Virus record (IMG/VR): IMGVR_UViG_3300010366_000002 | Coordinates: 1-54,145 of that record | Strand: one strand, 5' to 3' | Origin: a virus | Taxonomy: Duplodnaviria; Caudoviricetes | Length of the DNA: 54,145 bases | Part shown: piece by piece, positions 1,420-43,144 of the stretch | Position numbering within the stretch: the first letter of the stretch is position 1 | Layout of the letters: each line of letters begins with the position of its first letter | The notes under the pieces: model-generated | What the model saw: the letters and a program-made list of their open reading frames with translations, nothing else | Told to the model about the DNA's origin: nothing | The model's database searches: none | Translations under genes and position numbers: made by a program

Positions 1420-1716
1420 TTGACGTCCTCCGCCAGGTAAACCAGGCGGATTCCCTACGTTGGCCCTCAACGCCCTGAGGGGAGACCTATGCAGTGTCTC
1501 TTACTTATCAGCGCTTCTCATCGCCCTGACGACCATGCCTGCGTCAAGCATGGGAAGAAGCATCTCGGTACGTCCGTATGGGCCAGCCAGCTCCAGGCTG
1601 TCGTTCAACTGGCGCGCGACGCATGCTTCATGTGCGTTCACTATTGCGGTATCGCTTTTACGCACAGTCCTGCACTGTGCAACCCGCAAACGATATTTGA
1701 AAGAGCACGGCACAAC
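1420..1716 (-). ncRNA. omegaRNA-like ncRNA A (predicted guide CTTTCTTAGTCCATGACCTC, 1419->1400)
   Basis: Extended -10 TGaTATAAT at 1731->1723; homologous to 39252-39560 at both ends. Confidence 0.7.
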
Positions 1717-1859
1717 AGGATAATTATATCAAAGAAGTGTAGTTTTGTATATACGCAGCGTGTTAGGGGAATGACGCGGAGCGTCAGGGAATTGCTGCGA
1801 TGCAGCAACCTCCTATTCCTCTGTCCGCTGAAGCAGACAGCCCCCTAGGAGGAATCTGT
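1420..1859 (-). mobile_element. Non-autonomous IS200/IS605-family element A (left end + promoter + omegaRNA-like RNA + right end; no ORF)
   Basis: Minus-strand right end GAAT-CCGCCTGG-TTTA-CCTGGCGG-AGGACG-TCAA ending at 1420; left-end hairpin TTCCTCCTAGGGGG-CTGTCTGC-TTCA-GCGGACAG-AGGAATAGGAGG at ~1809-1855, homologous to elements B and C; left boundary uncertain by ~2 nt. Confidence 0.85.
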
Positions 1860-1917: not shown

Positions 1918-2916
1918 ATGGGGTTTCATCTTACGAAAGCCGAAATCCACAAGCTGATGACCATGGACGAGGTGCTCGCGGAAGCGCGGCTCCTCGACAG
2001 CTACGGCGCCTACGAAGGCGAGCGTGAAGAGAGAGAGAGGCGCGAAACAAACATTCGCGAGCGCATCCTGTCGGGAGAAATGACGCCGTTTCGCTGGTGC
2101 GTCGGCTATGTTCCGTCCATAGGGCTCCGCCGCCGGGTGAACGGCCAGCATTCGAGTCACGTCTTTCTCAAGCTCACCGAGGAAGAGTACAAAATGGTGC
2201 ACTTCCCCGTTTTCATTGTGTACGAAGAGTATGAGTGTGAGACCGAGATTGATGTTGCCACGTTGTTTGAGCAGTTTGACCAACATTGGTCCGCACGTTC
2301 ACGCGAAGATTACATTGGGGCACACCTCGCCGTGCATCCTGAGCTGAACCAACGCATGAGTCGCGTTGCCGCTGACAAAGTCGTGCAGGGCCTCATGTGG
2401 TATCTCGAAAATGTCGAGGGCTTTGACAAGGGCTCCGCGCATGAGCAGTATGAGCTGCTGCACAAAAACAGCGAGTACGAAACGTTTATGTATTTTTGTG
2501 GCTATGGGCAACTCAACCTCAACAAGAAACTCAAGGAGCTGTGTCACCGGGCCGTCGTGGCGGCGATGTTTCACACCACCAGACAAGGATCGGCGGAGGA
2601 TAGGGATTTCTGGAAAGTCGTCTCGGGGGGACCGCAATCGATTCTTGATGGCGACAGCCATCACGCGAAGATTGCCGCATTTTTGGAGCATGCGGTCACC
2701 CAGAACTATGACTGGCCTACGAAAATCCGCGGACAATTCAAGAACAAAAAGAATCCCAACCCTATCGAAATCTTTGCGACGTGCCTCAGAGTGTTTGCGG
2801 CGTGGAAAAAAGGTCACCGTCTCACCGAGGCCTTTGTCTCATTGCGTGAGCAAAGCGCCCAGTATACCGTGATCCATCTCTATCCCCTCACAGGCAAAGA
2901 GGGGCTCGCTGCCTAA
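1918..2916 (+). CDS. ParB/Srx-like (DGQHR-type) N-terminal domain protein
   Basis: RRVNGQHS motif; AAAGGAGAGG RBS before ATG 1918; the ORF-track start at 1858 falls at the element A boundary. Confidence 0.6.
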   Translation: MGFHLTKAEIHKLMTMDEVLAEARLLDSYGAYEGEREERERRETNIRERILSGEMTPFRWCVGYVPSIGLRRRVNGQHSSHVFLKLTEEEYKMVHFPVFIVYEEYECETEIDVATLFEQFDQHWSARSREDYIGAHLAVHPELNQRMSRVAADKVVQGLMWYLENVEGFDKGSAHEQYELLHKNSEYETFMYFCGYGQLNLNKKLKELCHRAVVAAMFHTTRQGSAEDRDFWKVVSGGPQSILDGDSHHAKIAAFLEHAVTQNYDWPTKIRGQFKNKKNPNPIEIFATCLRVFAAWKKGHRLTEAFVSLREQSAQYTVIHLYPLTGKEGLAA

Positions 2917-2918
2917 CC

Positions 2919-2995
2919 TTGACGTCCTCCGCCAGGTCAACGTGTCCTTCACCCCCAGCCAAGCTTCCAGCTCTGGCTGGAGCACTGGACACGAG
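2919..2995 (-). mobile_element. Remnant IS200/IS605-type element E (truncated right end fused to a left-end-like double hairpin)
   Basis: 2919-2937 identical to the terminal 19 nt of elements A and B; CGTGTCC...GGACACG stem enclosing CCAGCCA...TGGCTGG. Confidence 0.55.
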
Positions 2996-3080
2996 GTTGG
3001 TAGAGAAGGAATGGGACGCCTGGAGCGGTACCGCTCCAAGCGTCTCGTGGAAACTTCGAGGTCTAGAAAGGTCCCTGCTC

Positions 3081-3350
3081 ATGTCCCCTTCCCCCTGGCC
3101 CAGGCGCTGGATGCAGGCCCTGCCCCCCATCTCAGACCGCGCCTTTGTGGTCTGGTTCATGCTCATGCTCTTCCTGCTGGGCGTCGGCGTCGGCGTCGGC
3201 ATGGTGCTCTCGCTGCGGGACCCCGTCCACAGGGCGCAGACGCAGCTCTACTCCGTGGTCGAACGCCTGGAGATTTTGGAGCGGCTGCGCAACGTGGAGG
3301 AACGCCTCAAGGCCCTGGAGCAGCGCACGTCTCAGGAGCTACGACCATAA
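3081..3350 (+). CDS. Small membrane protein with C-terminal coiled coil
   Basis: GAAAGG RBS; TM AFVVWFMLMLFLLGVGVGVGMVL; LRNVEERLKALEQ heptads. Confidence 0.7.
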   Translation: MSPSPWPRRWMQALPPISDRAFVVWFMLMLFLLGVGVGVGMVLSLRDPVHRAQTQLYSVVERLEILERLRNVEERLKALEQRTSQELRP

Positions 3351-3821
3351 AGTTTCCTCCAAGGGGACTGCCTCCTTTCGGTGGCAGAGGAATTGGAGGT
3401 TGAGCCCCACGGGCTCAACAGATGTTCAATGTTTGTTCACTGTTTGTTTAGGCTTTGTTCACTGTTTCAAACCGTCCTACTATGCTACACTTTCCTCAAT
3501 ACGACCGTGTCAGGCATTCCAGCTTTGATCGCTGTCTGCCGCTTCAACACACGGTACGGCTCTTTCTAACATAACTTCGCGGGGTTGCTGGTCGTAGGGA
3601 CCAGCGTAAAAGTTGTGCCGCAAAGTAGAGAACCAATCCAGACAACCGACCGGCTTTGAGGCCGATGAGCAGGTGTCGCTGGTCAACCAGTCTGGGGCTC
3701 GGACGGAGCCTTTACGGCGTAACGTAGGGGTAGTAAACCCAAGCGTGCCGTAAGAAGCTGTTGTTAAAGTGACCTGCTTCGGCCAAAAGAAGCTGTCTGC
3801 TTGAGCTGACAGAGTCGTCAC
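3349..3821 (+). mobile_element. Non-autonomous IS200/IS605-family element C
   Basis: Target CCAT (3345-3348); GGGA at +16..+19 before the left-end hairpin CTGCC..GGCAG; right end GAAG-CTGTC..GACAG-AGTCG-TCAC; excision recreates an ATGA gene overlap. Confidence 0.9.
3498..3821 (+). ncRNA. omegaRNA-like ncRNA C (predicted guide GAGCACGACAGGCAGCCCGT, 3822-3841)
   Basis: TGcTACACT -10 at 3483-3491; 3' part GGCTCGGACGGAGCC-TTTACGGCGTAACG...CGTGCCGTAAGAAG resembles tnpB 3'-end RNAs. Confidence 0.7.
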
Positions 3822-16031: not shown

Positions 16032-16624
16032 TTTGGCCTATTACCAGTGAGCGCGTAATACACATCCAGCGCGGTTAGGGACCCCACATAGACCATGGTT
16101 GCGGGCGTTGCCTGCTGGCCACCCCCTGCACTCGTATCCGCAAACAGGGCTTCGCCGCGCAGGGCCTGACGCTTGGAAATCGCATAGAGATAGCTGCGCT
16201 GGGTCGCCGAAGCCCCGGTACCACTGAAGATCTTGTCGTAGGCACTCCTGACCTGCGCTAGGGAAGGATTAATCTGGCCCGAGCGGTTCATCACCTCCCA
16301 GCCGTCACGCTCCTGCACACTCTGCCCAATGTAGGTCGTCCAATTCCAGGTAGACCCGTCATAGGCTGTTGCCTCATAGATGTCTTTTTCTGCGAGCTGG
16401 ACCTTCCACACCCAGAAGGCCGACTGTACCACGTTGTAGGCGTCGGCTATGGCCGCATGGTGGGCTGCGGCCACGAGCGTCGCGAATTCTGCCTGGTTGG
16501 TAACCGTAATATCCGTATTCAGGGCCTTGTACTGAGCATCGCTTAATCCCTGGCCATACCCTGGCCTGTACAAGCAGAGCAGCACAAGGAATGGCGCGAT
16601 GATGAGGAGATGTTTTGTGCGCAT
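16028..16624 (-). CDS. Signal-peptide hypothetical (tail-associated) protein
   Basis: [39 protein letters not shown]. Confidence 0.75.
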   Translation of the reverse strand: MRTKHLLIIAPFLVLLCLYRPGYGQGLSDAQYKALNTDITVTNQAEFATLVAAAHHAAIADAYNVVQSAFWVWKVQLAEKDIYEATAYDGSTWNWTTYIGQSVQERDGWEVMNRSGQINPSLAQVRSAYDKIFSGTGASATQRSYLYAISKRQALRGEALFADTSAGGGQQATPATMVYVGSLTALDVYYALTGNRPK

Positions 16625-19600
16625 CAGTTCGTACTCGCTATGATTTGCAGGCTACTCGTGTCACTGCTGTAGAGCAGCCCCACCATCAATTCGTGGGCGG
16701 TGTCAAGCGGGCACGTCGTCGGCCCGGACACTGCCGCACTGTTGACAATATTTGCCGCATAGGCAATAGTCTGCGCCGCGACCGTACAACGCAGCCGCAG
16801 CAGGAAGCGATCGCCGTCTACGAGCGTGCCCGAGGTGCCCAGCGTCACGGTGCCAGCAGCGCCTGACATACTCATCTTGCACTGATTCATCGAGCCATTG
16901 CGCGCACAGTTATAGGTCGTACTGCTCGTAATCGTCTGCACGCCCGTGTCCACGAGATACGTCGTGGTGTCGACCCCCAGGGTCCCCGTACCGCCACTCG
17001 TTTTCACAAAGCCATTGCTACTCAGATTCGGCAGCGCCGCAATGGTAGGCGTCGTGATCGTTGGACTGGTCGCCTTCACGTAGCTCCCGGTCCCGGTTAC
17101 CGCCACGCCTTGTACGACCGTGGCACTCGTCCACTCTGCCGCCTGGCCAGCGGTGGGGGTCCCGCTACTCGACACGTTGCCGCCCCCAGCCGGAGTGGCC
17201 CAGGTGGCATCGCCGCGCCAAAAGGTCGTCGCGGTGGCCCCGGTGCCGCTATTCAAGTTCGCCACCGGGAGGTTCCCGGTGACGCCCGTAGAAAGCGGGA
17301 GCCCGGTCGCATTACTCAGCACCGCCGCCGACGGGGTGCCCAGGTTGGGCGTGGTCAAGGTGGGGCTGGTCGCCTTGACATAGCTGCCCGTGCCGGTCAC
17401 CGCCACCCCCTGAATCGTCGTGGCAGTGGTCCATTCGGCGGCCTGGCCACTCGTCGGCGTCGCGACATTGGAGACGTTGCCCCCACCTGCGGGCGTCGTC
17501 CAGGTATTGTCGCCACGCAGAAAGGTCGTACTGGAGGCACCCGTGCCTCCGGCCAGATTCGCGATGGGCAAATTCCCGGTGACGCCCGTACTGAGCGGTA
17601 ACCCCGTGGCATTGGTCAGCACCGCCGCACTCGGCGTGCCGAGATTAGGCGTCGTGAGGGCCGGGCTGGTCGCTTTGACATAGGCGCCGGTGCCGGTGGT
17701 GCCACTCGTATCGACGCCCAGCGTCCCGGCGCCCCCTGAGGTTGTCACCAGGCCATTCGTCGTGAGGTTCGCCAGGGCCGCAATGGTGGGTGTCGTAATG
17801 GCGGGACTGGTCGCCTTCACATAGTTGCCGGTTCCCGTGACAGCAATACCCTGGATAACCGTTGCACTGCTCCACTCTGCCGCTTGTCCGGCGGCCGGCG
17901 TGCCTGTATTGGAGACGTTGCCACCCCCGGCCGGGGTCGCCCAGGTATTGTCGCCACGCCAGAACGTCGTCGCGGACGCCCCGGTGCCGCTATTCAAGTT
18001 GCTCGTAGGCAGATTGCCCGTAACACCCGTCCCCAAGGGGAGGCCCGTAGCATTACTCAGCACCAGCGTACTCGGGGTGCCCAGATTGGGTGTCGTGAGG
18101 GTCGGGCTGGTCGCTTTGACATAGCTCCCCGTCCCGGTGACTGCCACCCCCTGAATGACCGTGGCACTGGTCCATTCCGCCACCTGGCCGGCAGTGGGGG
18201 TGCCACTATTCGACACATTCCCCCCGCCGGCTGGGGTGGCCCAGGTATTGTCGCCACGCAGAAACGTGCTACTAGACGCGCCCGTACCGCCGGCTAAGTT
18301 CGCGATGGGGAGAGTGCCCGTGACGCCGGTTGTAAGCGGCAATCCCGTGGCATTGGTGAGCACCGCCGTGCTCGGCGTGCCCAGATTGGGCGTAGTCAGG
18401 CTAGGGCTGGTCGCCTTGACATAGTTCCCGGTCCCGGTCACCGCCACACCCTGAATCGTCGTTACGGTGACCCATTCCGCCGCCTGCCCGCCGAGGGGGG
18501 TGCCGCTACTCGACACATTGCCCCCGCCGGCGGTAAAACAACTCCCCCCCTTGACGCATAACTCGCCGGGCTCTGCTGGCAGAAAGTGGGCCCAGTTGTT
18601 GGGCATATTATCGGGGGGAATGAGATAGCCCTTGTGGCCCAGGCGGTCCTGCCAGGGCAGATAATTCCCCAGGGTAGCCGCCTGCAGGTTCGAGGCAATG
18701 AGCGTATGGCCGGTGGGATTAATGAGCACATTGCCACTGTCTGCCGCAAAGGCGCCCCCCTGGTTAAATTGCACATCCCCCGTCACCCCCGCCGGGGTGC
18801 CGCCACCGCCGGTCCCCGTGCCGCAGGCCGCACCCGTATCGACCAGATTGAGGTTGGTATCGAGCTGCACACAGTGCCCCGGCGTAAAGGGCCCCTGGCC
18901 GGTCATCAGGGCATGCGACGTGCCGACCAGGGTGGTGTCGATGGGGAAGACGGCATGCGGCGTCTGTTGCGAGTTGTAGGTCAGCACGGCGGTGCCCAAC
19001 CGGGCGGAATACTCGAACAGCCAGACATCTTCGGTAGTGCCGCCAGTCGTGGTCGTGGGCAGCGCGATCCCGGTATTGGCCGTCCAGAAACTGCCCCAGG
19101 TGATGGCCCGAGCCACGGTCGAATGCGCCCGGAAGCGCAGCGGCTGACTCGGACGCACGGCCCCAGTCGGATTGTCGATAAGCGTCGCTTGCTGGAGGTC
19201 GCTGAGCACGAACACATCACAGCTATCGAGATTGACCACCAGTGGCGTCGTCGTCATCGGCTGCGAGCACTGACGCGGGGTGACGCGGGTCTGCGTCACT
19301 TCCTGCACGTCGGTGGTGCCGAGAATCTGTCCCACCGGGGCCGGGCGGGTCGAGACCGCCGCAACACCACCCGTCACCGTTGAGAGGACAAGCCCCGTCG
19401 GCACGGCGCCCAGATTGACCCCCGACGGGAACACCGTCGAGGGCTGCGACAACCACACCGCCGGGCCAACGATGGGCGAAGACAGCACGGGGGCCCGACA
19501 CAGCACCGCACCCGTACTCGATTGCCCATACATCAGGTCTGTGCTCTGCGTACACTGGGAGCCGACAAACCCGGCAAAACCGCCGCTGCCGTTGGCGGCT

Positions 19601-19779
19601 TGCAACGTCCCCACCGGACCAATCGCGCCTGTCCCTCCACCGCCACCCCCGCCCGTCGCCGTGGATGTCGTGACCACGCCACGGGTGCCGGTGGGCGGCA
19701 GACTCCCGTACACCACCGCGGCGTGCGTCGGTGCCGCCATAAGCAGCCAGCAGAGGAGAAGCAGCATGCAGCCCAGCAT
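16624..19779 (-). CDS. Signal-peptide long tail-fibre-like protein with 100-aa repeats
   Basis: [21 protein letters not shown]; G/T-rich repeats with [20 protein letters not shown]. Confidence 0.85.
16960..18531 (-). repeat. Five ~300-bp coding repeats in the fibre gene
   Basis: AGGGNVS units start at 18531, 18231, 17931, 17490, 17190 (spacing 300, 300, 441, 300). Confidence 0.9.
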
Positions 19780-29658: not shown

Positions 29659-29760
29659 TGCTATACTTCCTCGTGCAGCTAGGGTCTGCAGCCCGACAAG
29701 CCAGCACCTGTACTGGTTGCTGCACACATCTTTTACAGGTTCTAACCAAACAGGAGGTTA
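29659..29760 (+). promoter_or_regulatory. Extended -10 promoter and structured leader RNA of the HNH gene
   Basis: TGcTATACT 29659-29667; GTGCAGC...GCTGCAC stem 29673-29725 enclosing two hairpins. Confidence 0.6.
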
Positions 29761-29763
29761 GGA

Positions 29764-30321
29764 ATGAAAAACATCCCCCGTGTCTGTCAATATAGTCCCT
29801 GTAGGAAACCCTTTATGGTCTATCCCTCACAATTACGCAAAGGCGCAGGTATTTATTGTTCACGCGCCTGTATGTATGCGTCCTTCTCAAAACCAATTCC
29901 GCGTGTGTGTCGCCTTTGTCGTCGTGATTTCCTGTCCTACCCCGCTCAAATACAACGAGGAAACGCCCAGTACTGCTCTCGATATTGTTACGACAGCGCC
30001 AAACGGTTTGACCTCACGACTTTTTGGCAATGGGTCTCTACCTGTCTGCATGGAAAAGACTGTCCTTTTTGTTGCTGGCCGTGGAAACTCCCCTTAAAAA
30101 ACGGTTATGGCTATTTCCAGCTTGAGCGTATCCAATACTACGCCCATCGTACAGCCTGGGAGATTTGGCACAATCGGCCTATTCCCCATGCCTTATTTGT
30201 AGCTCATTACTGCCACAACCGCGCTTGCTGTAATCCAGACCATATTCACGCGGCAACCCCGAAAGAAAATATTGCCGATTCTATCCGTGATGGCCGTATG
30301 GGATGGCAGCAAGATCGTTAA
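29764..30321 (+). CDS. HNH (homing) endonuclease with Cys-rich N-terminal repeats
   Basis: YCSRAC/YCSRYC repeats; CWPWK..GYG..YAHR..HYCHNRACCNPDH...EN; inserted antisense in the tail module. Confidence 0.9.
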   Translation: MKNIPRVCQYSPCRKPFMVYPSQLRKGAGIYCSRACMYASFSKPIPRVCRLCRRDFLSYPAQIQRGNAQYCSRYCYDSAKRFDLTTFWQWVSTCLHGKDCPFCCWPWKLPLKNGYGYFQLERIQYYAHRTAWEIWHNRPIPHALFVAHYCHNRACCNPDHIHAATPKENIADSIRDGRMGWQQDR

Positions 30322-33903: not shown

Positions 33904-35142
33904 TTATGATGCGATACGGACTGCTAAGTCCGGGTATATATAGGTCCACCCATAGAGTACGTCCAATCTACCTGCACTAATATCATTCGCACCATCCTGA
34001 TACATATAGAAGCGTATCGAGATGTTGCTATCGGGGTCACTCACCCGTTCGCACAGTTCCCGTGGCACACCGGGCGGGTAATCCAGATCCACGACGGCAA
34101 GCGTGATGGCGTCACGGTGAAAGCCCAGGTTCTGCGGACTCATCGTATTCGCCGCACCGATCACCGTAAGCGGCGCATTGGCCAGCGGCGCCGCGTTCAC
34201 CGTCTGAAACTGCACCCGGCTGCCATCCGGGTTGGGCGGCGTAATGGCCGGGTAAATCGGAATCGTCGCCGCGCCTGTGGCATCGCTGGAGGTCTGCGCC
34301 TGCACCACAAAGTTTTGCAAGCGCCCGGTGGATTGCCGGTTCTGCGGGTTGACCGAATAGACCCCTTGAATGGTGAACACGTCCCCCCGGTTGAGCCGCA
34401 CCGCGGCCGCAGCGGTCCAGCCGCCCGTGACCAGGTTCGATCCCGTCTGGCCGCCACCCGTGACCGTCGGCGTACCACCTAGCGGGCCCACGGTATGGGC
34501 CGGAATGTTGACATCTTCATACCAGTCCCAGCCACCCGATTGATCCATTAAACCCGTACGGTACAGTTCACTGATGCCGGGCTGCGGGTTAAATAGTGTC
34601 GTCTTGGCCTCGCCAATGACCGCCATGCTATTGGCGCCCAGCATGAGCGAGCGCATGCCTTCCCCCTTGGGCGCGCCCTGTTCGGTCAGAATCGCTCCCG
34701 CCTGCCAGTACGTCGCCAGCGAGTTCGGCACGACACCTGGCGTGCCCAACATCCACGGCACCTGGTAATAAATCCCCAGACCATCCTCGTCAATGACGTT
34801 GGCAATCCGGGCCACGGCGGGCTCAAGATGGCGCCTTCTAAAATCATCCATACTGAGGGTGAAGTCAAACGACGTAAAGTTGAGGTCCACGCCAAACATT
34901 GACAGCGTCAGATTCGTGTATTGTTCGTTGATCCCTTCAAAGTACGCCGTCGCACCACGCCGCCCGACATACCGTTGCGGCTTGCGTAAACTGATCGTCT
35001 GCCCGTGCTTAGCGCCCGTCTGCGCAAACTGGTTTTCGTATTGGCGATTGACCCGGTTGCCCATCTGTAAGCGGTTCTTGAGAATCATGGCGCTTTCGTA
35101 ACTAATATGCGCCGGGGTGAGAAACGTATTATTGGTAGCCAT
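33904..35142 (-). CDS. Major capsid protein (P22 gp5-like coat)
   Basis: Start MATNNTFLT; VNRQYENQF...GQTISLRKP, GDVFTIQGVYSVNPQ, QNLGFHRDA, RLDVLYG. Confidence 0.92.
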   Translation of the reverse strand: MATNNTFLTPAHISYESAMILKNRLQMGNRVNRQYENQFAQTGAKHGQTISLRKPQRYVGRRGATAYFEGINEQYTNLTLSMFGVDLNFTSFDFTLSMDDFRRRHLEPAVARIANVIDEDGLGIYYQVPWMLGTPGVVPNSLATYWQAGAILTEQGAPKGEGMRSLMLGANSMAVIGEAKTTLFNPQPGISELYRTGLMDQSGGWDWYEDVNIPAHTVGPLGGTPTVTGGGQTGSNLVTGGWTAAAAVRLNRGDVFTIQGVYSVNPQNRQSTGRLQNFVVQAQTSSDATGAATIPIYPAITPPNPDGSRVQFQTVNAAPLANAPLTVIGAANTMSPQNLGFHRDAITLAVVDLDYPPGVPRELCERVSDPDSNISIRFYMYQDGANDISAGRLDVLYGWTYIYPDLAVRIAS

Positions 35143-35241
35143 AGGGCATACATATCCTCTACATTGGCACCGGAGCACGGCAGTTGCCTGCCAAAGCGAG
35201 CCGTGCGCCGGTAGGTCCTATATGCCCGCAAGCCACTTGGG

Positions 35242-36288
35242 TCACGGGCGTCCGTTGCGTTCTTTGAGCCGCATCTGCTCATAATCACTGAGCGGCATCC
35301 CCGCATGAAATCCCAGCACGGGTTGCGCACTCCCCGTCCCCACCGGAGCCAGGGGGACCGGCGCCGGGGGCGCCAGCGCCACAGACGAGGCCGCTCGCCC
35401 GGAACGGTCACGACTGTGCCCCTGCTCCCTGGCCAAGCGCGCTTCTAAACCAACCAGATAGCGCGCAGCCGCATCCGGCGTCATGGCGTTAAAGGCGCGC
35501 AACTCTTCGGGGTTCGTGCCGAGGTGATACATCAGGGCCGCCCCGTGCTCCGAACCGACGAAAAACGGTGCCAGCACACTGCCCGGACCCGTCGCGACTT
35601 GCAGCTGCGCCATACGGCGATCATAGTCCGGGTATTTAAGACGCCCTTCTTCGGTGCGCTGCCGCCACACCTGCTCCACCTGCTGCGCCGCCTGTGCCCG
35701 CTGGTTCGCCACGGTCTCCGCGGTCTCCAGCTCCCGCCAATACAGCCGCAAATCATCTTCATACTGCTGATAATCGCCGTAGTGCTGTGGCTGCGGCCGG
35801 GGGCGCATCCCCGGAGGCACGGCCGGACCCTGCCCCTGCGGCTGTCCCTGTGGCTCCACTCTCTCCCGCTGCAGGGCGGCTAACTGTCCCTCCAGAAACG
35901 CTAAGCGCTGTTCACGCTCGATGTCCCGCGCCAGCAACTCCGTATGCCGGCGCTGATAGTTTTGATTCTCTTCCCACAGCCGGGCCCGAAACCTGCGGTT
36001 CGACTCGCCCGGATGCTGGCCCAAATCCTGAGGCGTAGGCGCTGGAGGCGCTGCGGGCTCCGCAGATTCCTCAAGCTCCGCGCCCTCGTCGTCTCCCGGC
36101 TCTGTGGGCTCCACAGGCACCGGGATGTCATCGTCATCCCCCGCTGCGGGCTCCGCAGGGGGCGGTGGTGCGGTGGGTGCAGGCGGTGTCGTCTCGACCG
36201 TGAACCGTGGATGATTGGCATCCGCGACCGGCGTAATCGTGCCGTCTGCATTGAGCACCGCGCCACTAGCAAATATGGGTCCTGCCAT
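35242..36288 (-). CDS. Scaffolding protein
   Basis: Acidic/Pro-rich N-term, coiled coil, KYPDYD, GAALMYHLGTNPEE; directly upstream of coat. Confidence 0.8.
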   Translation of the reverse strand: MAGPIFASGAVLNADGTITPVADANHPRFTVETTPPAPTAPPPPAEPAAGDDDDIPVPVEPTEPGDDEGAELEESAEPAAPPAPTPQDLGQHPGESNRRFRARLWEENQNYQRRHTELLARDIEREQRLAFLEGQLAALQRERVEPQGQPQGQGPAVPPGMRPRPQPQHYGDYQQYEDDLRLYWRELETAETVANQRAQAAQQVEQVWRQRTEEGRLKYPDYDRRMAQLQVATGPGSVLAPFFVGSEHGAALMYHLGTNPEELRAFNAMTPDAAARYLVGLEARLAREQGHSRDRSGRAASSVALAPPAPVPLAPVGTGSAQPVLGFHAGMPLSDYEQMRLKERNGRP

Positions 36289-36469: not shown

Positions 36470-36846
36470 AAGTTTGTTCAAGGTTTTTCTATACCTTGTT
36501 TAGGCTTTGTTTACTGTTTCATGTTGTCCTACTGTGCTATACTTCTCCCTGTCTGTGGAGTAGATGGTGTCCATTGCCACAGACAGTTTTTGTTCCCTTC
36601 CAAGGCTCTTCGACAACACAGCGTAGGTGGTTGAGAGAGGCAGTCTCTCTCGTAAAACGTTGTACGCATAGCAAGAACCTCTCGTCAGTCCTGGAGCTTC
36701 TTGACGTTGCTCTAGGCGCGCCCAATGGCGGGGCGCTCAACAGGGTACGAGGCCCGGCCGACCGGGACCCACCTCAAGAACCTGAACCGGCAACTTCCAG
36801 GGACGGTCCCTGGAATCCGCCTCGTTCACGGGGCGGAGGATGTCAA
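36470..36846 (+). mobile_element. IS200/IS605-derived element D (promoter + omegaRNA-like RNA + right end; left end not found)
   Basis: Right end GAAT-CCGCCTCG-TTCA-CGGGGCGG-AGGATG-TCAA; promoter region homologous to C. Confidence 0.75.
36550..36846 (+). ncRNA. omegaRNA-like ncRNA D (predicted guide GTCTTGCCACACCACATCAA, 36847-36866)
   Basis: TGcTATACT -10 at 36535-36543; boxA-like motif and conserved stem-GTAAAA module. Confidence 0.65.
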
Positions 36847-36880: not shown

Positions 36881-37636
36881 TCAGGCATAGAGGGACCCCT
36901 GTTTTGGCTTCGACGATGGCAACGGCACCGGGAACAAATGCAGTTGCTGCGTCAAGACTTCCAAGCGCCGACAGGCATACTCAAAATAGGCGGGATTGAT
37001 TTCAATGCCTATAAACCCACGCTGCAACTGCAGCGCCGCGTATCCCGTCGTGCCCGAACCCATAAATGGATCAAGCACGACCTGTCCGGGTAAACTGGCC
37101 CGATTGACCAACCAGCGCATCATCCTAATGGGCTTGGCACAGGGATGCGCGTGCAGATTCGCATCATTGCCCGAGGTCTGAGCACAGGCATTGGGACGCG
37201 ATCCTTGACCAATGGCGAGATAGGGATCTTTCCCATAATAGAGAATCGGTGACATACACGTAAAGCCCCACCGGCTGCACCCCGTGCCGGCGGCGAAGAA
37301 AAAACAGCCAATATCATCGGCGGAGGGATAGCGCCCGAGATTCCGTACCCCTGATATCACCGCCATACAGGTAGCCAGATTCCGACACTGGGTCAGAATA
37401 GGCAGCACCACGTTCTCAAAATACGCGACTGTATCCTCATGTGCAAAGGTATCTGGACGGCGCGTACCCTTACGCTGCCCATTCCCGAGACGGCGCGAGC
37501 CCATTTTGCCTCGCAACTCCACTCCATAAGGCGGATCCGTAATGACCGAATCCACCGGCGCAAGCGTAGACACAATCTCCGCTGCATCGCCACAATAGAG
37601 CGTACAGGCACCTATCTGCTCCATCGTCCAACTCAA
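36881..37636 (-). CDS. DNA methyltransferase (N6-A/N4-C, beta class)
   Basis: VITDPPYG ... HPCAKP ... VLDPFMGSGTTG. Confidence 0.92.
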   Translation of the reverse strand: MSWTMEQIGACTLYCGDAAEIVSTLAPVDSVITDPPYGVELRGKMGSRRLGNGQRKGTRRPDTFAHEDTVAYFENVVLPILTQCRNLATCMAVISGVRNLGRYPSADDIGCFFFAAGTGCSRWGFTCMSPILYYGKDPYLAIGQGSRPNACAQTSGNDANLHAHPCAKPIRMMRWLVNRASLPGQVVLDPFMGSGTTGYAALQLQRGFIGIEINPAYFEYACRRLEVLTQQLHLFPVPLPSSKPKQGSLYA

Positions 37637-37932
37637 GTCTTCTTCCCCTTCGGCATCGCCACTAACTCTTTCATCGTCATATTATCACGGCCGTTGCGCC
37701 CCGCTACCCCAAACGTACTGGCACCATAGGTCGTATTGCCCTGGCCACGCCCATAGCCGTTGCCATTGCCATTGCCATTGCCATTCCCATTCTCTCTGCC
37801 GTTCCCATTCTCTCTACCATTGCCATTACCATTGCCGTTGCGCTCCAGCATCTTATGTGCCATCCGTTCAGTCTCAAGCGCTTTGGCGCCAATCGCGCGA
37901 GTCAAATCACCGTTTCTGCCGTTGCGTGCCAT
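37633..37932 (-). CDS. Small basic protein with Asn-Gly repeat
   Basis: NGNGNGNGRENGNGRENGNGNGNGNGNG; AAGGGG RBS. Confidence 0.6.
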   Translation of the reverse strand: MARNGRNGDLTRAIGAKALETERMAHKMLERNGNGNGNGRENGNGRENGNGNGNGNGNGYGRGQGNTTYGASTFGVAGRNGRDNMTMKELVAMPKGKKT

Positions 37933-38239
37933 TCTTTTTCCCCTTCTTGCTGCCACCCACTTCAATACCCGGATACTTCGCATGCACCTTGCGCTTCACC
38001 GCCGCCTGCTCCGCTGACGTGCCGTGTTGCGCCACCCGCGCTAAAGCGTTCCTAGCTCTGGCCTTTGTATCTATTGGATATGATCCTTTTTGACCCTTAC
38101 TCTTCTCTTCAGCAGTCGGGGGAAGAGCGAACTGGCCTTTGGACAAGCCCACCCGGCCGCTCGTGGTGATTTTGCCGCCCGATTCCTTCGCCGCCTTGAT
38201 CTTGCGGCCCGTCGCCGGATTCGTTTTTGTCTTCGCCAC
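37907..38239 (-). CDS. Small basic phage protein
   Basis: GGAGG RBS + GTG; QFALP..SYPIDTKARARNALAR. Confidence 0.7.
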   Translation of the reverse strand: MAKTKTNPATGRKIKAAKESGGKITTSGRVGLSKGQFALPPTAEEKSKGQKGSYPIDTKARARNALARVAQHGTSAEQAAVKRKVHAKYPGIEVGGSKKGKKNGTQRQKR

Positions 38240-38298
38240 GTTTCAGAACCTCCAGTATCTCTGGCAAGGATGCCGTCATCAACTGCACCAGGTCTGCC

Positions 38299-38595
38299 TC
38301 AGTCAGTATCAACATCCTCCTCCTCGGCAACAGCCGCAAACACGCGCCCACAGCAACTCATCCTCACAGGGAAGCCCTCGATCGGACGCCACTGACCACA
38401 GCACGCTATCTCCATCGGGGCATGGCCCTGCGTGCGGCGGGTATAAAGCGTACCGGCATAGTCAGCGGGTAGACGCGGACTCGGCGTATAGCACTGAGAA
38501 CAGGCGCTATACGGCTCTTGATCGTTGGGATAGCCACAGACGCCACAGAGGCCCGCGGCCCGGCGGCAACGATAAACCACAGAGGACGTCCCCAC
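38299..38595 (-). CDS. Cys-rich zinc-finger-like hypothetical protein
   Basis: CGVC, CSQC, CC pairs. Confidence 0.55.
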   Translation of the reverse strand: MGTSSVVYRCRRAAGLCGVCGYPNDQEPYSACSQCYTPSPRLPADYAGTLYTRRTQGHAPMEIACCGQWRPIEGFPVRMSCCGRVFAAVAEEEDVDTD

Positions 38596-38598
38596 CGT

Positions 38599-38835
38599 TT
38601 ACACCTGTCTCGGACGGCGCCGAAGCGACGCCAGATGCGCCTGGAAACGCGACTCACGCGCCTGCAGGGCCGTGCGCACCGCATGCGCCGCACTCTCCCA
38701 GGCTGAGCGCTGCTCGGGAGTCTGGTTCGGCCAGGCCGGTAACCCCTCGTTGTGCACGCTCCGCCAGCCCTGATGATCCCCATACGCCTCATAGGCGACC
38801 TGACCTAAGCTGCGCAGGGCTCTCGTATCGCTCAT
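38599..38835 (-). CDS. Hypothetical protein
   Basis: LGQVAYEAY...LPAW...AWESAA; GGAGG RBS, ATGA overlap. Confidence 0.65.
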   Translation of the reverse strand: MSDTRALRSLGQVAYEAYGDHQGWRSVHNEGLPAWPNQTPEQRSAWESAAHAVRTALQARESRFQAHLASLRRRPRQV

Positions 38836-39104
38836 GGCTGTGCCCCTCCGGTCACGGCCTGCGACTGCGGCTGTGGACCAGGCGCCAGCAGCAAGGCCGC
38901 CTGACTTACTGGATCGGCCAGGGAGTCAAAACCCGGCTGCGCCACGTGTTGTTGCACCGCTGGCCAGTCGACCTGGTCAAAGTTCGGGTACGCCTCCCGG
39001 TAGCGCTGGATCATGGCCTCCGTCTGCCGGATCCCCGCCCCCAGCTGCTCCCGCAGTTGTTGCCGTAAAGCTCTGGTTTCCATACTGCTCGTGCCGTTAG
39101 CCAC

Positions 39105-39560
39105 ATTTTCTCCAAGGGAGCTGCCGGCCTTCAGTCGGCAGGGGATTTGGAGGTTGAGCCCCACGGGCTTAACTCTTGTTCAAGGTCTGTTCAAGGTTTG
39201 TTCAGTCTTTGTTCACTGTTTCTCTTAGACATAGTGTGCTAGACTTTCAGACAGTATGCCTGCTCTTTCAAATATCGTTTGCGGGTTGCTGTTCGCAGGG
39301 AACAGCGTAAAAGCGATACCGCAAAGTTCGCACCATACGAGGTACTGCGTGGTCGTCTGGTTGTTTCAGCATATCGCTGGCCAGACATAAGACCATCCAT
39401 TCAGATGCCTCTTGCAGAGACTGTTGCTGTCTCTGTTGCGTCTGCTAGAAGGCTGGTCCTTTGGGGCAGACGTAAGTAAGAGTGATAGCATCTCACTCCC
39501 CTCAGGACGTTGAGGGCCAACCTGGGGAATCCGCCTGGTTTACCTGGCGGAGGACGTCAA
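39105..39560 (+). mobile_element. Non-autonomous IS200/IS605-family element B
   Basis: Target CCAC (39101-39104); GGAG before left-end hairpin CTGCCGGC-CTTCA-GTCGGCAG; right end GAAT...TCAA; precise excision restores the ORF. Confidence 0.92.
39252..39560 (+). ncRNA. omegaRNA-like ncRNA B (predicted guide GAGTTCCAGGTAGTGGTGAT, 39561-39580)
   Basis: TGcTAGACT -10 at 39237-39245; homologous to ncRNA A with compensatory changes. Confidence 0.7.
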
Positions 39561-39720
39561 GAGTTCCAGGTAGTGGTGATACTGCTGGCTGAATTGCGCT
39601 TGCAGCTGGGTGTAGCGGCGCTGGAGGTCCTCGTGGTGTCTGGTTAGGGCGCCCAGGCGTCCGCGCAGATCCTGGTTGTCGGCCTGGAGCGCTTGGACAT
39701 CCATCGATCGTCCTGCATCG

Positions 39721-40266
39721 CTAGCGCATCCCCCATGGCTGCCGATATAACTGTCCCAGGTTCGGCGCAAACGTGCCCGGTACAGACCCTTGCGGCGCTG
39801 GCGTCCCCTGCGGCGGCGCGTACATCCGCTCGATGGCGGGCGGCGCTGGATTCGCCCTGAACGTGCCCGGCACATACCCCGGTGGCGCTGGCGTCACCTG
39901 CGGCTCCTGGATCCGCTGCATGAGCGCCCAGTCCTCTGGCGACATCCCCACCGGCCCCAGCCCGGCCCGCTGCCGCGCCACTTCCCGCTCCAAAGCCGGT
40001 GGTGCCGGAAGCACCGTCCCCGTCGTCGGCATCGACTGCAGTTGCTGCCATAACTGCTGCACCGCCGCGTCAGACCCACTCGACTGTGCGGCCGGCCTCG
40101 GACTCCAGCCCCGGTAGATAGCCCGTAAGGCGTCTGCGGTCGTTCCCGTATCCCCCATACCGCCAACGTTTTGCTGCACCCACGACGGCCCCGCATCTAG
40201 CCACGAGCGCCCCAGTTGCGACCCAAGTAGCGCCCCGTACCAGTCCGACGCATCCCACGCCATCAT
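39721..40266 (-). CDS. Pro/Gln-rich hypothetical protein sharing its N-terminus with the upstream gene
   Basis: MMAWDASDWYGALLG; GGGGAG RBS. Confidence 0.65.
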   Translation of the reverse strand: MMAWDASDWYGALLGSQLGRSWLDAGPSWVQQNVGGMGDTGTTADALRAIYRGWSPRPAAQSSGSDAAVQQLWQQLQSMPTTGTVLPAPPALEREVARQRAGLGPVGMSPEDWALMQRIQEPQVTPAPPGYVPGTFRANPAPPAIERMYAPPQGTPAPQGSVPGTFAPNLGQLYRQPWGMR

Positions 40267-40274
40267 GCTCCCCC

Positions 40275-40790
40275 TTAGCGCCCCGGATAGTCCTTTTCGC
40301 CTGTTAGCCATTGCCGCAACACGTAATGCTCCACTGGCGTCAGGGGCTGTGGCAGATAATTCTGGTACACCGACGGATGCACCTCCCGCGCCGCCCCTAA
40401 CATCCGATCCATCAGCGCGTGCTGCGTCTCTACCGGTACCTGCGCCGTCTGCTGATTGAGGAAGTGCAGCAGTTCATGCCCGAGCGTATTCCACGTACTG
40501 GCGGGCACTTTCCCCGTCTGATACCGAATCACATTGGCCTCCGGGTCAAACGACCCGACCGCCTGCTCCCGCGCCATGAGTTGCGGATCCGGCAAGACGC
40601 TCACCGTCTGCGGCACCGCCTGCGCCTGCGCCAGAATACGCTTGTACTGATCCAGCAGGTAATCGCCCGACGGCTGCGCCTGCAACGACTGCATCATCGC
40701 CTGTCCCGACGGCGTCGTTACCACCTCCGCTTCCGCCTCTCGCGGCCCCAGCAGCGACGACAGCCAATCCTTCACATCCCACGCCATCAC
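40275..40790 (-). CDS. HEXXH zincin-like metallopeptidase domain protein
   Basis: GSFDPEANVIRY...TLGHELLHF; starts MMAWDVKDWLSSLLG. Confidence 0.65.
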   Translation of the reverse strand: MMAWDVKDWLSSLLGPREAEAEVVTTPSGQAMMQSLQAQPSGDYLLDQYKRILAQAQAVPQTVSVLPDPQLMAREQAVGSFDPEANVIRYQTGKVPASTWNTLGHELLHFLNQQTAQVPVETQHALMDRMLGAAREVHPSVYQNYLPQPLTPVEHYVLRQWLTGEKDYPGR

Positions 40791-43144
40791 TCACCGCCCT
40801 CGCCCTCTTCCCGTTCCTCAGCCTCTAGCCTGTCTAACTGCTCCCGCATCTGCTGCAGATGCCGCATCAGCCCCGCCACATTGCTCACCGCCGTGTGGGC
40901 GTCCTGGCGCCGACTCATCAGCATCTTGTCCCGCTCCAGCTCCAGCATGGCCATGTCTTGCCGCGCCTTCATCGCCGATTCGGTCGCTTGCAACTCGACT
41001 TCGCGCTCCTTCAGTTGGATCTCTCGCAGCTCCATCATGCGGTCCTGCTTCAGTTGCTGATTCTCCTGGGTGGCCTGGCTCGCCACCTGCTCCACTTGAC
41101 TCGCATGCGCATTGAGCGCCTGGGCCTCCTGCGTCTTTTGCTGCAGCCGCTGCATCACCACGGGTAACAGGTCTTCGGGCTTCTGACCTTCCTCGTCTTG
41201 CAAAATGCCAGGCGGCAGCGTCAACTTCGCCCGCCTGGCCGCCTCTTTGGCATCGTCAAAGTCCATATTGCCGATAATCAGGTCAGGAATCACGGCCCCG
41301 AGCGCCGGAATCTTATCGGCCACCTCGATCAGGTTCTCCGCCGTCTCCTGGCGCTGGGTCTTATAATTGGGACCCACATCCGTCACCACATCATACGTCC
41401 CCACGCTCAGGTTATAGATGCCCTCCACCCCGGCTTGCAGCTCTTGCAAACCAGCTTGCCGCGCTTGCGGGTCGGGGTGGAGCATAATCTGCCGCACGCT
41501 GTCATCCTTGCCCAGAATACGCAACACCCGATCAGGCTCCCGGTACACACGCGGAATGGCATCGACTAAAATCCGCATGACATGGCGCACCGCCCAGCGT
41601 AAATGCTCGGCATAGTGCGAACTCCCCATTTCACTCTCGGTACGCCGGATTTCCGCATGCCGCCCGCTCGTCTCATTCGACGGTTCGCCTAAATCGGCTG
41701 GCGTGAGTCCCGTCGTATTATATAGGTCCTGCTGCGCCTGCTGTCTGGCTACCGCAATCGCCTGAATGGCGGGCTCAGCCGTCTGCCGCTGCGGTGGCGG
41801 CATCAGCTGGCCATTGGGCGCAAAATCGGGATTGTACGCCAGATAACTGTATGCTACCGTGTTCGCGTTGGCCCATTCCGGGCGATTCTGAAACTGCTTC
41901 ACCGTCCCAATATACGAGGACTTGGGCGCCAGGGCGACCGTTTCCGCCCCCGTCGTCGTCCAGTAGTTATAGGCTCTCTGAGCATCAATCATGTCCCACA
42001 CCACGCCACGATATTCGACTTCGCCGTTGAGGTCAATCTCGTCGCCAATAACCGGGACAATCGGCAGATAGCGACTCGGCCAAATGGACCGCTCGACAAT
42101 CGTGTCTCCCACCAGTTTGCAAGCCCGGATAATCGGGAGTTCGCTCCGGCGCTGTTGCTGCACCGCGCCTGCTTCCGTGTCGAGGAGCGGCGTCACCCCA
42201 TAACGCAGCATTTCCCAGGCCACACTGGAGAGCAGCGCCGCTTCCTGCGCCTGCTCATCCTCGGTAAGTTCGTCCTGTACCTGCATAATGGGCACATAGC
42301 GCGTTTCGCCACTGGAGAGCTGCACCAACTGCACCTGCAACGCTTCCCGGTAGTAGTAATCGACAAGGAGTGCCTCGTCGCGGCTCACCCAGCCATCCCC
42401 CGTACTGGCCCAAGCGCTTGAGACCCCCCGTGGAATCTCGTAGCGTTCACATACATGCGCGCGGTTGAGCCGCTCAACCACTAACCCCCACTCCGCACTG
42501 TGATAATCGGGAGTCCGGCGCCCCGCGGGATCCAGGTAGACCGCAAAGGGATTCAGAATCCGCTCCAAGCGCAGGACCTGCTGAAAGCTCCATGGACTCT
42601 CATAGTCCGTGAGCACGCGCATATAGCCTTTACCGTGCGTCACGGCCGCATCAAACGCCGTATCGACGACCGTATCCCAGTCACTCGCCTGAAGAATGGC
42701 GCGAATGAGTCCGTCAAACACAGACGCCGTCTCGACGTCAGCGCCCGACCCCACCGGGCGCGTTTTCCCCGCCGGCCGGTTCTGCTGCTCGGCGTTCGTG
42801 ATCTGCCGGATAAATTTCCCCGTCTGGTTGATCGTGAGACACGGGCGCGGGTTGGGACCCGACGTGCGCACATAGATTTCGGCGGCTTCCCACTGTTCCC
42901 CGGCCCGGAATTTGAGGCATTTCAGCGCCTTGGTACGCCAGACGCCTTCGAAGCGCTCGACGGCCTGAAAGCGCTGGTGCGCCAAGTCACAGATGTAGCG
43001 GTCTTGCTGCACGCGACGCTCATACAGCGCTCGGTTATCGGCGTCAGAGCGGGTCTGGATGACCGGCTGACCGCGACTCGACACGCGGGGATCAGACCTG
43101 AAGGGCAGCGCCGTGGGAGAGAAACCAGGAGGCAGCGTCGCCAT
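40787..43144 (-). CDS. Portal protein (P22 gp1-like)
   Basis: GEQW, RPCLTIN, PIVPVIG, DAQRAYNY, NETSG, YDVVTDVGPNYKTQRQE; C-terminal coiled-coil barrel. Confidence 0.92.
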   Translation of the reverse strand: MATLPPGFSPTALPFRSDPRVSSRGQPVIQTRSDADNRALYERRVQQDRYICDLAHQRFQAVERFEGVWRTKALKCLKFRAGEQWEAAEIYVRTSGPNPRPCLTINQTGKFIRQITNAEQQNRPAGKTRPVGSGADVETASVFDGLIRAILQASDWDTVVDTAFDAAVTHGKGYMRVLTDYESPWSFQQVLRLERILNPFAVYLDPAGRRTPDYHSAEWGLVVERLNRAHVCERYEIPRGVSSAWASTGDGWVSRDEALLVDYYYREALQVQLVQLSSGETRYVPIMQVQDELTEDEQAQEAALLSSVAWEMLRYGVTPLLDTEAGAVQQQRRSELPIIRACKLVGDTIVERSIWPSRYLPIVPVIGDEIDLNGEVEYRGVVWDMIDAQRAYNYWTTTGAETVALAPKSSYIGTVKQFQNRPEWANANTVAYSYLAYNPDFAPNGQLMPPPQRQTAEPAIQAIAVARQQAQQDLYNTTGLTPADLGEPSNETSGRHAEIRRTESEMGSSHYAEHLRWAVRHVMRILVDAIPRVYREPDRVLRILGKDDSVRQIMLHPDPQARQAGLQELQAGVEGIYNLSVGTYDVVTDVGPNYKTQRQETAENLIEVADKIPALGAVIPDLIIGNMDFDDAKEAARRAKLTLPPGILQDEEGQKPEDLLPVVMQRLQQKTQEAQALNAHASQVEQVASQATQENQQLKQDRMMELREIQLKEREVELQATESAMKARQDMAMLELERDKMLMSRRQDAHTAVSNVAGLMRHLQQMREQLDRLEAEEREEGEGGE

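Follow-up and report, generated by a model that had tools for sequence, protein, structure and literature searches.

A protein-less IS200/IS605-type element with a candidate guide RNA lies in front of a small gene in a P22-like phage genome

We analyzed a window of 54145 bases, which represents a complete IMG/VR virus record with direct terminal repeats and a GC content of 59%. The record belongs to a P22-like phage whose portal (40787-43144), scaffold (35242-36288), and coat (33904-35178) genes are all encoded on the minus strand. Between the portal and scaffold genes, at positions 39105 to 39560 of the top (+) strand, we found a protein-less mini-element of the IS200/IS605 family (TnpB lineage), hereafter called element B, both ends of which match this family. 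In our reading, element B is probably a non-autonomous, protein-less, PATE-like IS200/IS605 derivative of the TnpB (IS1341-like) lineage that sits in front of a complete gene and carries a guide-type RNA. PATEs are palindrome-associated, protein-less IS200/IS605 derivatives that have kept their ends; often they also encode an omega RNA, which TnpB has to use in trans (PMC10055086). On the top strand, a two-hairpin left end is followed by a set of TGTTCA units with a -10-like box, then by a structured RNA region of about 310 nt, and finally by the right end, which closes with ...GTCAA. The first-pass annotation of this region had likewise described a bounded element without target duplication, linked to TnpA and TnpB, with CCAC and a guide in its flanks, and this part of the interpretation stands. 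The split gene and the genetic switch that it had added to this picture are not supported.

We first describe the ends of the element. On the + strand, GTTAGCCAC ends at 39104, element B follows, and GAGTTCCAGG starts at 39561. The 12-nt flanks share no common direct repeat, i.e., there is no target-site duplication. Both ends carry subterminal imperfect hairpins of similar form, and terminal inverted repeats are absent. At the right end, a hairpin at positions 39531-39550 (+) precedes the terminus ...GTCAA at 39560. Taking the last 35 nt as a right-end pattern (the hairpin, then ...GGAGGAYGTCAA), we found exact matches at 19 IMG/VR loci and at 22 genome loci from several phyla, with multiple copies in Burkholderia anthina. 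The hairpin covaries among copies. At every one of these loci, conservation ends precisely with GTCAA and any base can come next, which fixes the right boundary of element B at 39560. At 14 of the 19 viral loci, a Pfam-confirmed TnpB of 348 to 433 aa, encoded on the same strand, ends in or next to the hairpin. Eighteen ORFs were scanned for this confirmation, the domains being PF01385, PF07282, and mostly PF12323. As for the five other viral loci, L023 harbors the same 399-aa ORF, which was left out of the scan, L029 is cut by the contig end, and L021, L026, and L033 are without a full tnpB. In the Burkholderia copies the element is longer than 1600 nt, and no left end was found within the 1600 nt examined.

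The left end points to this family as well. Hairpin 1, an imperfect palindrome at 39121..39141 (+) that lies 16 nt inside the boundary, also occurs upstream of tnpB genes, and in eight loci a hairpin of this type is located 58 to 87 nt upstream of the tnpB start. Hairpin 2 (GTTG...CAAC, 39153..39173, +), which was recognized by eye, follows hairpin 1 in B, D, G001-Y, L016, and L033. The same two-hairpin left end heads elements D and A of this phage, a short element of the syntenic genome G001, and two elements of the L033 contig. The left flank of element B is the TAM-like CCAC at 39101..39104 (+), the reverse complement of which is the GTG-G start of the downstream gene. Among 11 left flanks, whose boundaries were set by eye, the consensus was N-(C/T/A)-C-A-(C/T/A), with CA at positions -3/-2 in all of them and C or T at position -1 in 10; element B reads GCCAC. 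We then built a covariance model (R1) from seven sequences, covering only the last 100 nt of the RNA. R1 scored 63 to 70 bits on TnpB-linked loci outside its alignment (L049, L042, L018, L053, L045, and L016) and detected exactly four copies in the phage genome, namely A, B, C, and D, while it had no match in G001, L010, L035, or L036. This right-end model also weakly matched the left-end hairpins in six loci, indicating that left and right hairpins are alike. Judged from their sequence, the ends of element B are bona fide ends of the IS200/IS605 family, TnpB (IS1341-like) lineage.

The prototype of the family, IS608 of H. pylori, inserts 3' of a short motif without duplication, and its right end finishes in TCAA. 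Element B is similar to IS608 in both respects, but the left-flank motif is CCAC instead of the TTAC of IS608, and TnpA and TnpB, both encoded by IS608, are missing. Compared with the IS1341-like tnpB-only elements (the 14 TnpB loci, L016-L034), element B has the same right-end hairpin, the same ...GTCAA terminus, the same form of left-end hairpin, and a CA-pyrimidine flank, but it contains neither a tnpB ORF nor a remnant of one. Element B also resembles the PATEs as the cited work portrays them: these have subterminal hairpins at both ends, lack a coding gene, leave the target unduplicated, share their right end with TnpB-bearing elements, and have an RNA at the omega-RNA position, and they too would need TnpA and TnpB in trans. 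Unlike the PATEs of that account, element B belongs to a phage, whose 54 kb contain four related copies, it has an apparent promoter of its own where tnpB would be, and its RNA is about 310 nt long with 5' two thirds that are unlike the tnpB-linked loci studied here. By these features element B is a PATE-like element with a candidate omega-RNA-type gene, and it adds a phage case to a class that was already known.

The longest ORF inside element B is only 66 aa. Six-frame searches of the whole phage with PF07282 and PF01385 (TnpB) and with PF01797 (Y1 transposase) gave no match at E values up to 10, and tblastn with nine TnpBs of the family, used to look for TnpB remnants in element B, returned only noise. 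An alignment of a TnpB N terminus to the minus strand at 39280-39336 (E = 1.3) was rejected because this stretch varies by stem covariation and not as a protein would. Inspection by eye of positions 39177..39245 (+) revealed four TGTTCA units with an 11-nt spacing (39177, 39188, 39199, and 39210) and an extended -10-like box, TG-n-TAGACT (39237-39245). The stretch coincides with a copy of the 70-nt repeat family D5, with copies at 3423, 36475, and 39177, and the extended -10-like box is common to B, C, and D. A sigma-70 consensus scan called no promoter in B, while it called the equivalent in copy A (TATACA-17-TATAAT with TG). We infer that the TGTTCA/-10-like stretch serves as element B's own promoter.

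Positions 39250..39560 (+) harbor a structured, omega-RNA-like scaffold of about 310 nt, defined on an alignment of six copies (B, A, C, D, and the two copies of L033). RNAalifold predicted 58 pairs on this alignment, 30 of them with compensatory changes on both sides. Paired cells amounted to 86%, compared to 70% in shuffled alignments (0 of 500 reached the observed values) and 37 to 46% when the partners were slid. Several invariant G-U pairs fit the + strand only, that is, the tnpB-sense strand. The last 100 nt of the RNA are homologous to the guide-RNA/right-end region of TnpB elements, while the first 210 nt have no likeness to tnpB-linked loci; a pattern for the 5' motif matched only the L033 contig in IMG/VR. 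Rfam, at the gathering score as well as at E values up to 10, returned nothing for B (both strands), A, or D.

These data bear on the idea that element B could be an intron (group I, group II, or IStron-like) that is spliced from the minus-strand mRNA to yield a 138-aa protein. An in-frame join is possible, and if both boundaries are shifted by one base, the 5' exon would end in U and the intron in G, with shifted joins that stay open. In IStrons, IS605/IS607 elements are joined to group I introns (bioRxiv 10.1101/2023.11.20.567912); these are likewise IS605-type elements, and their removal from the message of the host gene can restore the frame. Unlike the IStrons of that description, however, element B has no intron signature, neither an intron family nor any other being hit in Rfam, and its top strand is antisense to the gene. 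Judging from the G-U pairs, the structured RNA is read from the + strand, whereas the gene lies on the minus strand; the ends are IS605-type ends common to TnpB elements, and the homologues of the downstream gene start at the junction. We give splicing next to no credence; both the strand and the Rfam result rule out an intron.

Element B is not alone in this genome. Matches to its first 140 nt lie at 3353-3494, to its last 35 to 90 nt at 1420-1507 (inverted) and 36812-36846, and to an inner stretch at 1644-1712 and 3559-3626. Element A (1420-1859, minus strand) is a complete sister of B. Its left end is at about 1790-1859, and the scan called its promoter at 1751-1723; the right end, at 1420, comes shortly after the stop of ORF 677-1414. 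Over 346 nt, element A shares 81% identity with an element of the L033 contig. Element D (3353-3821, +) has the left end and the putative TGTTCA promoter of B, but its RNA has diverged and its right end is a variant, ...GTCGTCAC. A truncated 179-nt relative of D lies in G001 (37083-37261), directly before the ATG of a homologue of the gene at 37907-38239, and a further relative is found in L035 at about 1400-1640. Copy C (36532-36846, +) comprises the RNA and the right end, and its left end is not recognizable. It follows a promoter-like stretch that corresponds to the 3' end of a 313-aa gene in G001, and in this phage that gene is replaced by the copy C RNA and a DNA methylase gene (36881-37636). 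Outside the phage, the 67-kb contig L033 carries at 2001-3230 (minus strand) two tandem protein-less elements with the same RNA type, each consisting of a left end, a promoter-like box, TTTGATATA(A/C)T, and a right end. The L033 record encodes a TraG/VirD4 coupling protein and no TnpB.

Alternatively, element B could be a domesticated cassette, no longer a transposon in practice, whose + strand RNA is antisense to the late operon and regulates its neighbors. In line with this, B, C, and D are all on the + strand, opposite the minus-strand late genes, copy C cannot move since it has no recognizable left end, conservation of the RNA, with covariation, extends to a second mobile element likewise devoid of TnpB, and the left ends put GGAG-type boxes before RTG starts. 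However, A, B, and D have kept both ends intact, and the antisense overlap follows automatically from the orientation. We thus consider this reading improbable as the explanation of element B, and it would in any case be compatible with the PATE-like reading that we favor.

The first-pass annotation had placed element B inside a head-module gene. On the minus strand, the DNA downstream of the element (38832..39104) encodes a small protein of 90 codons starting at GTG 39104 (with a further ATG at 39083), a short member of a family of ART-PolyVal-domain proteins. We recovered relatives of this downstream part among proteins (P0002-P0006), in IMG/VR (G001/L009 and L010), and in metagenomes (L035 and L036). 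When aligned (alignment A4), all seven homologues started with M-A/P-N-G-(T/S) at the residue that corresponds to GTG 39104, and none had a 48-residue extension; one partial record showed four extra residues. In addition, the stop of the preceding gene is found at or just before the conserved start in four neighborhoods (L009, L010, L035, and L036). The preceding gene of G001 (188 aa) has a stop that overlaps the ATG (TGATG). In the closest relative, L035 (88% identity), a 171-aa gene precedes, and the start comes 11 nt after its stop. In L010 and L036, the gene start overlaps the end of an unrelated 96-aa ORF. In the relatives, the downstream part is hence a gene by itself that begins at the junction, which in substance is the outcome that the first-pass annotation had named as refuting its reading.

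The long relatives (434 and 442 aa) contain the ART-PolyVal domain PF18760, which is missing from the short versions of this phage (90 aa) and of L035 (96 aa). Because the closest relative is also short and without this domain, the short form is a natural variant. The gene call of the record itself (P0001) begins at an ATG seven codons after the GTG. Read on the minus strand, the left end of the element supplies a Shine-Dalgarno-like GGAG 5 nt upstream of GTG 39104. As the start codon is kept and a GGAG is gained, element B need not switch the downstream gene off. From the sequence comparison, the downstream gene is complete from its GTG, and element B is located in front of it and not inside.

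The arrangement at this gene start has parallels in other copies. A GGAG(G)A located 5 to 7 nt from the boundary, with a flank that reads RTG, is seen in the reverse complement of the left end at 39089-39104, 1840-1862, and 3340-3365 of the phage and at 17070-17090 of L014, so that element and flank together make up a ribosome-binding-like site and a start codon. In the two cases where the flank is a conserved gene, B and the element of G001, the boundary is exactly at the start of that gene. Beyond the gene start, the region 38563-38935 compared with G001 37498-39309 has lost the ART-PolyVal domain, as in L035, and a gene of 213 to 232 aa with an RNA-polymerase alpha-CTD-like domain, located downstream in G001 and L035, is also lost here.

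Upstream of element B on the minus strand lies an orphan coiled-coil ORF of 54 codons (39540..39704), made of 48 codons of the flank and of six codons and a stop from the right end of the element. It is preceded by a conserved gene of 196 aa (39721..40311, minus strand), the stop of which overlaps the start of the downstream gene in G001. We removed 39105-39560 in a script and obtained a minus-strand ORF of 138 codons, starting at ATG 39704 and without internal stops, with the junction ...YLEL/VANGTS... The fusion of the minus-strand frames without target duplication, which had been reported at these coordinates, is therefore real. However, the length of element B (456 nt) is a multiple of 3, and the two ORFs thus simply share one of three frames, a one in three chance. 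Stop-free stretches of 48 codons are moreover common in this genome (24% off-frame and 39% random). The frame fusion does not exceed what is expected by chance.

The 48 upstream codons look coding, with GC1/2/3 values of 0.79/0.30/0.79. A word-based search among 5.8 billion proteins of near or longer length found no relative of the 48-codon part, and IMG/VR held none either. An exhaustive HMMER search of 1.84 billion representatives detected no fused relative. Besides the sequence itself, it returned five coiled-coil proteins, which are long and repetitive, and a single credible match, P0013, an unrelated 174-aa protein from a singleton cluster whose internal residues 61-113 match with 51% identity over 53 aa; P0013 itself has no relatives in IMG/VR. 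The 54-aa ORF showed no similarity to the phage's DnaJ-like ORF or to the 96-aa ORF upstream of the L036 homologue. The 48 codons thus probably stem from some gene, although not as the N terminus of the conserved one downstream. The resemblance that had been noted between YREAYPNFDQV in the fused product and GRLKYPDYDRR in the scaffold protein could not be reproduced, since BLASTP does not align these stretches and its best hit (E = 0.87) is a low-complexity PQPQ stretch.

We can now weigh the proposal that element B splits a real 138-aa head-module gene, that its scarless excision acts as an on/off switch, and that phages with the intact gene are the targets of TnpB. The 138 stop-free codons obtained upon removal, the insertion chemistry of the family, which implies that the flanks were once contiguous, the coding-like composition of the 48 codons, and the fit of the ends and of CCAC to the family all speak in its favor. 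Against these points, the seven homologues of the C-terminal part all start at the junction, with a preceding stop right before it in four contexts, and this part still has its start codon and a GGAG. The N-terminal part has no fused relative, its one credible match being internal to an unrelated protein, and in no relative did both parts align to one continuous gene. Furthermore, an in-frame arrangement arises in one of three cases where open frames are common, the phage has neither TnpA nor TnpB, and the 20-mer at the guide position occurs in no other IMG/VR contig. On balance, we regard a split gene with a switch as unlikely. Had it been true, it would have meant a transposon gating a virion gene, and the evidence contradicts this.

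The comparison with G001 helps to delimit what is particular to this phage. G001 is syntenic and has 4 nt in place of 39104-39724, so that a block of about 620 nt, comprising element B and an orphan segment of 160 to 164 nt, is absent from it. This block is specific to the lineage of this phage, judging from the sequences compared. On the left side, the homology to G001 ends at 39103/39104, in addition to the conserved right end that runs to 39560, and the boundaries given by the first-pass annotation are thus upheld on both sides, well beyond what chance would produce. Its statement that real transposition had taken place is weaker: G001, which has no element B, is also without the 160 nt beyond the right end, no other contig holding the right flank was found in IMG/VR, and a blastn search of 38600-40300 against the 'phages' collection gave no match. 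No empty site turned up in these sequences, and transposition into this exact spot is what we infer and not what we observe.

Two origins of the orphan segment can be envisaged. The element may have inserted canonically at a place where the 48 codons and the GTG were continuous and in frame; given their coding-like GC, a fused 138-aa product may then once have existed. Alternatively, recombination between element copies may have placed foreign DNA at the right end. The latter would fit the observation that the right ends of B, C, and D are adjoined by 164, 795, and 111 nt, respectively, with no counterpart in G001, a pattern that comes from one close genome and is to be taken as a lead only.

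How would such an element work? The internal promoter would drive a + strand RNA through the right end into the flank, so that positions 39561..39580 (+), assigned by position only, would be the guide. A TnpB from the host or from a co-resident element would load this RNA in trans, use the flank as guide, and cut alleles that have CCAC and the flank without the element. This would follow the homing logic set out for the IS200/IS605-TnpB family, where TnpB and its guide RNA cut element-free alleles (PMC10055086). Excision and transposition would in turn need a Y1 TnpA in trans. Since the phage is without TnpA and TnpB, either a TnpA switch or TnpB homing would depend on host enzymes, and the excision switch suggested earlier is not encoded here, as the six-frame searches indicate. 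That the guide of B together with CCAC spells the intact allele, another of the earlier claims, is true by construction for any element of the family; no such empty allele was found, and no phage with an intact allele that could be the TnpB target came to light. Indeed, the guide-position 20-mer is present nowhere else in the phage genome, in the fetched loci, or in IMG/VR contigs.

One may go further and speculate that the phage keeps A, B, D, and the end-less C as guide-only elements, with their own promoters and a conserved 310-nt RNA, and borrows the TnpB of the host to cut element-free rival phages, which would amount to RNA-guided homing or marker exclusion by a phage that has no nuclease gene of its own for it. 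The left end would have evolved an outward GGAG box, so that the element lands before start codons without silencing them, and recombination between copies would add DNA at right ends (the methylase by C, the orphan ORF by B, and 111 nt by D). In this scenario, the element can land exactly before start codons because its target, CA-pyrimidine, reads RTG on the other strand. As a whole, we hold the scenario to be a long shot. Apart from this scenario, a complete phage genome contains four protein-less elements of the IS605/TnpB lineage that keep, and apparently express, only a guide-type RNA. The RNA, the left-flank motif, and the flank are concrete substrates for asking whether phages use host TnpB in trans, and left ends placed right before start codons with a ribosome-binding-like box provide an idea on how elements survive in gene-dense genomes.

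Several further features of the window deserve mention. At 29672-29739 (+), Rfam identified an int-alpA RNA with a score of 41.5 bits, which exceeds the gathering score; an HNH endonuclease ORF (29764-30321) lies shortly downstream of it. The ORF at 16624-19779 (1051 aa) contains five to six repeats of 300 nt with 62 to 80% identity at 16967-18531 (minus strand). After the portal gene, a conserved 171-aa gene (40275-40790, minus strand) encodes a HELLH motif with a weak match to Peptidase_M91 (E = 0.0096), and its product may be a zincin-like virion protein. The ORF at 1918-2916 (+; 332 aa) has a lower GC content (54%). ORF 1858/1918-2916 was considered as a hidden TnpB and rejected; it has no Pfam or PHROG match, and the Atlas groups its predicted fold with ParB/GmrSD_N/DndB-like (DGQHR) phage proteins. 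Directly after the stop of ORF 1918-2916, at 2919-2941, the tip of the right end recurs by itself as a 23-nt stretch with 96% identity, and the 60 nt adjoining it resemble a stretch of L035 that has a different hairpin at that place.
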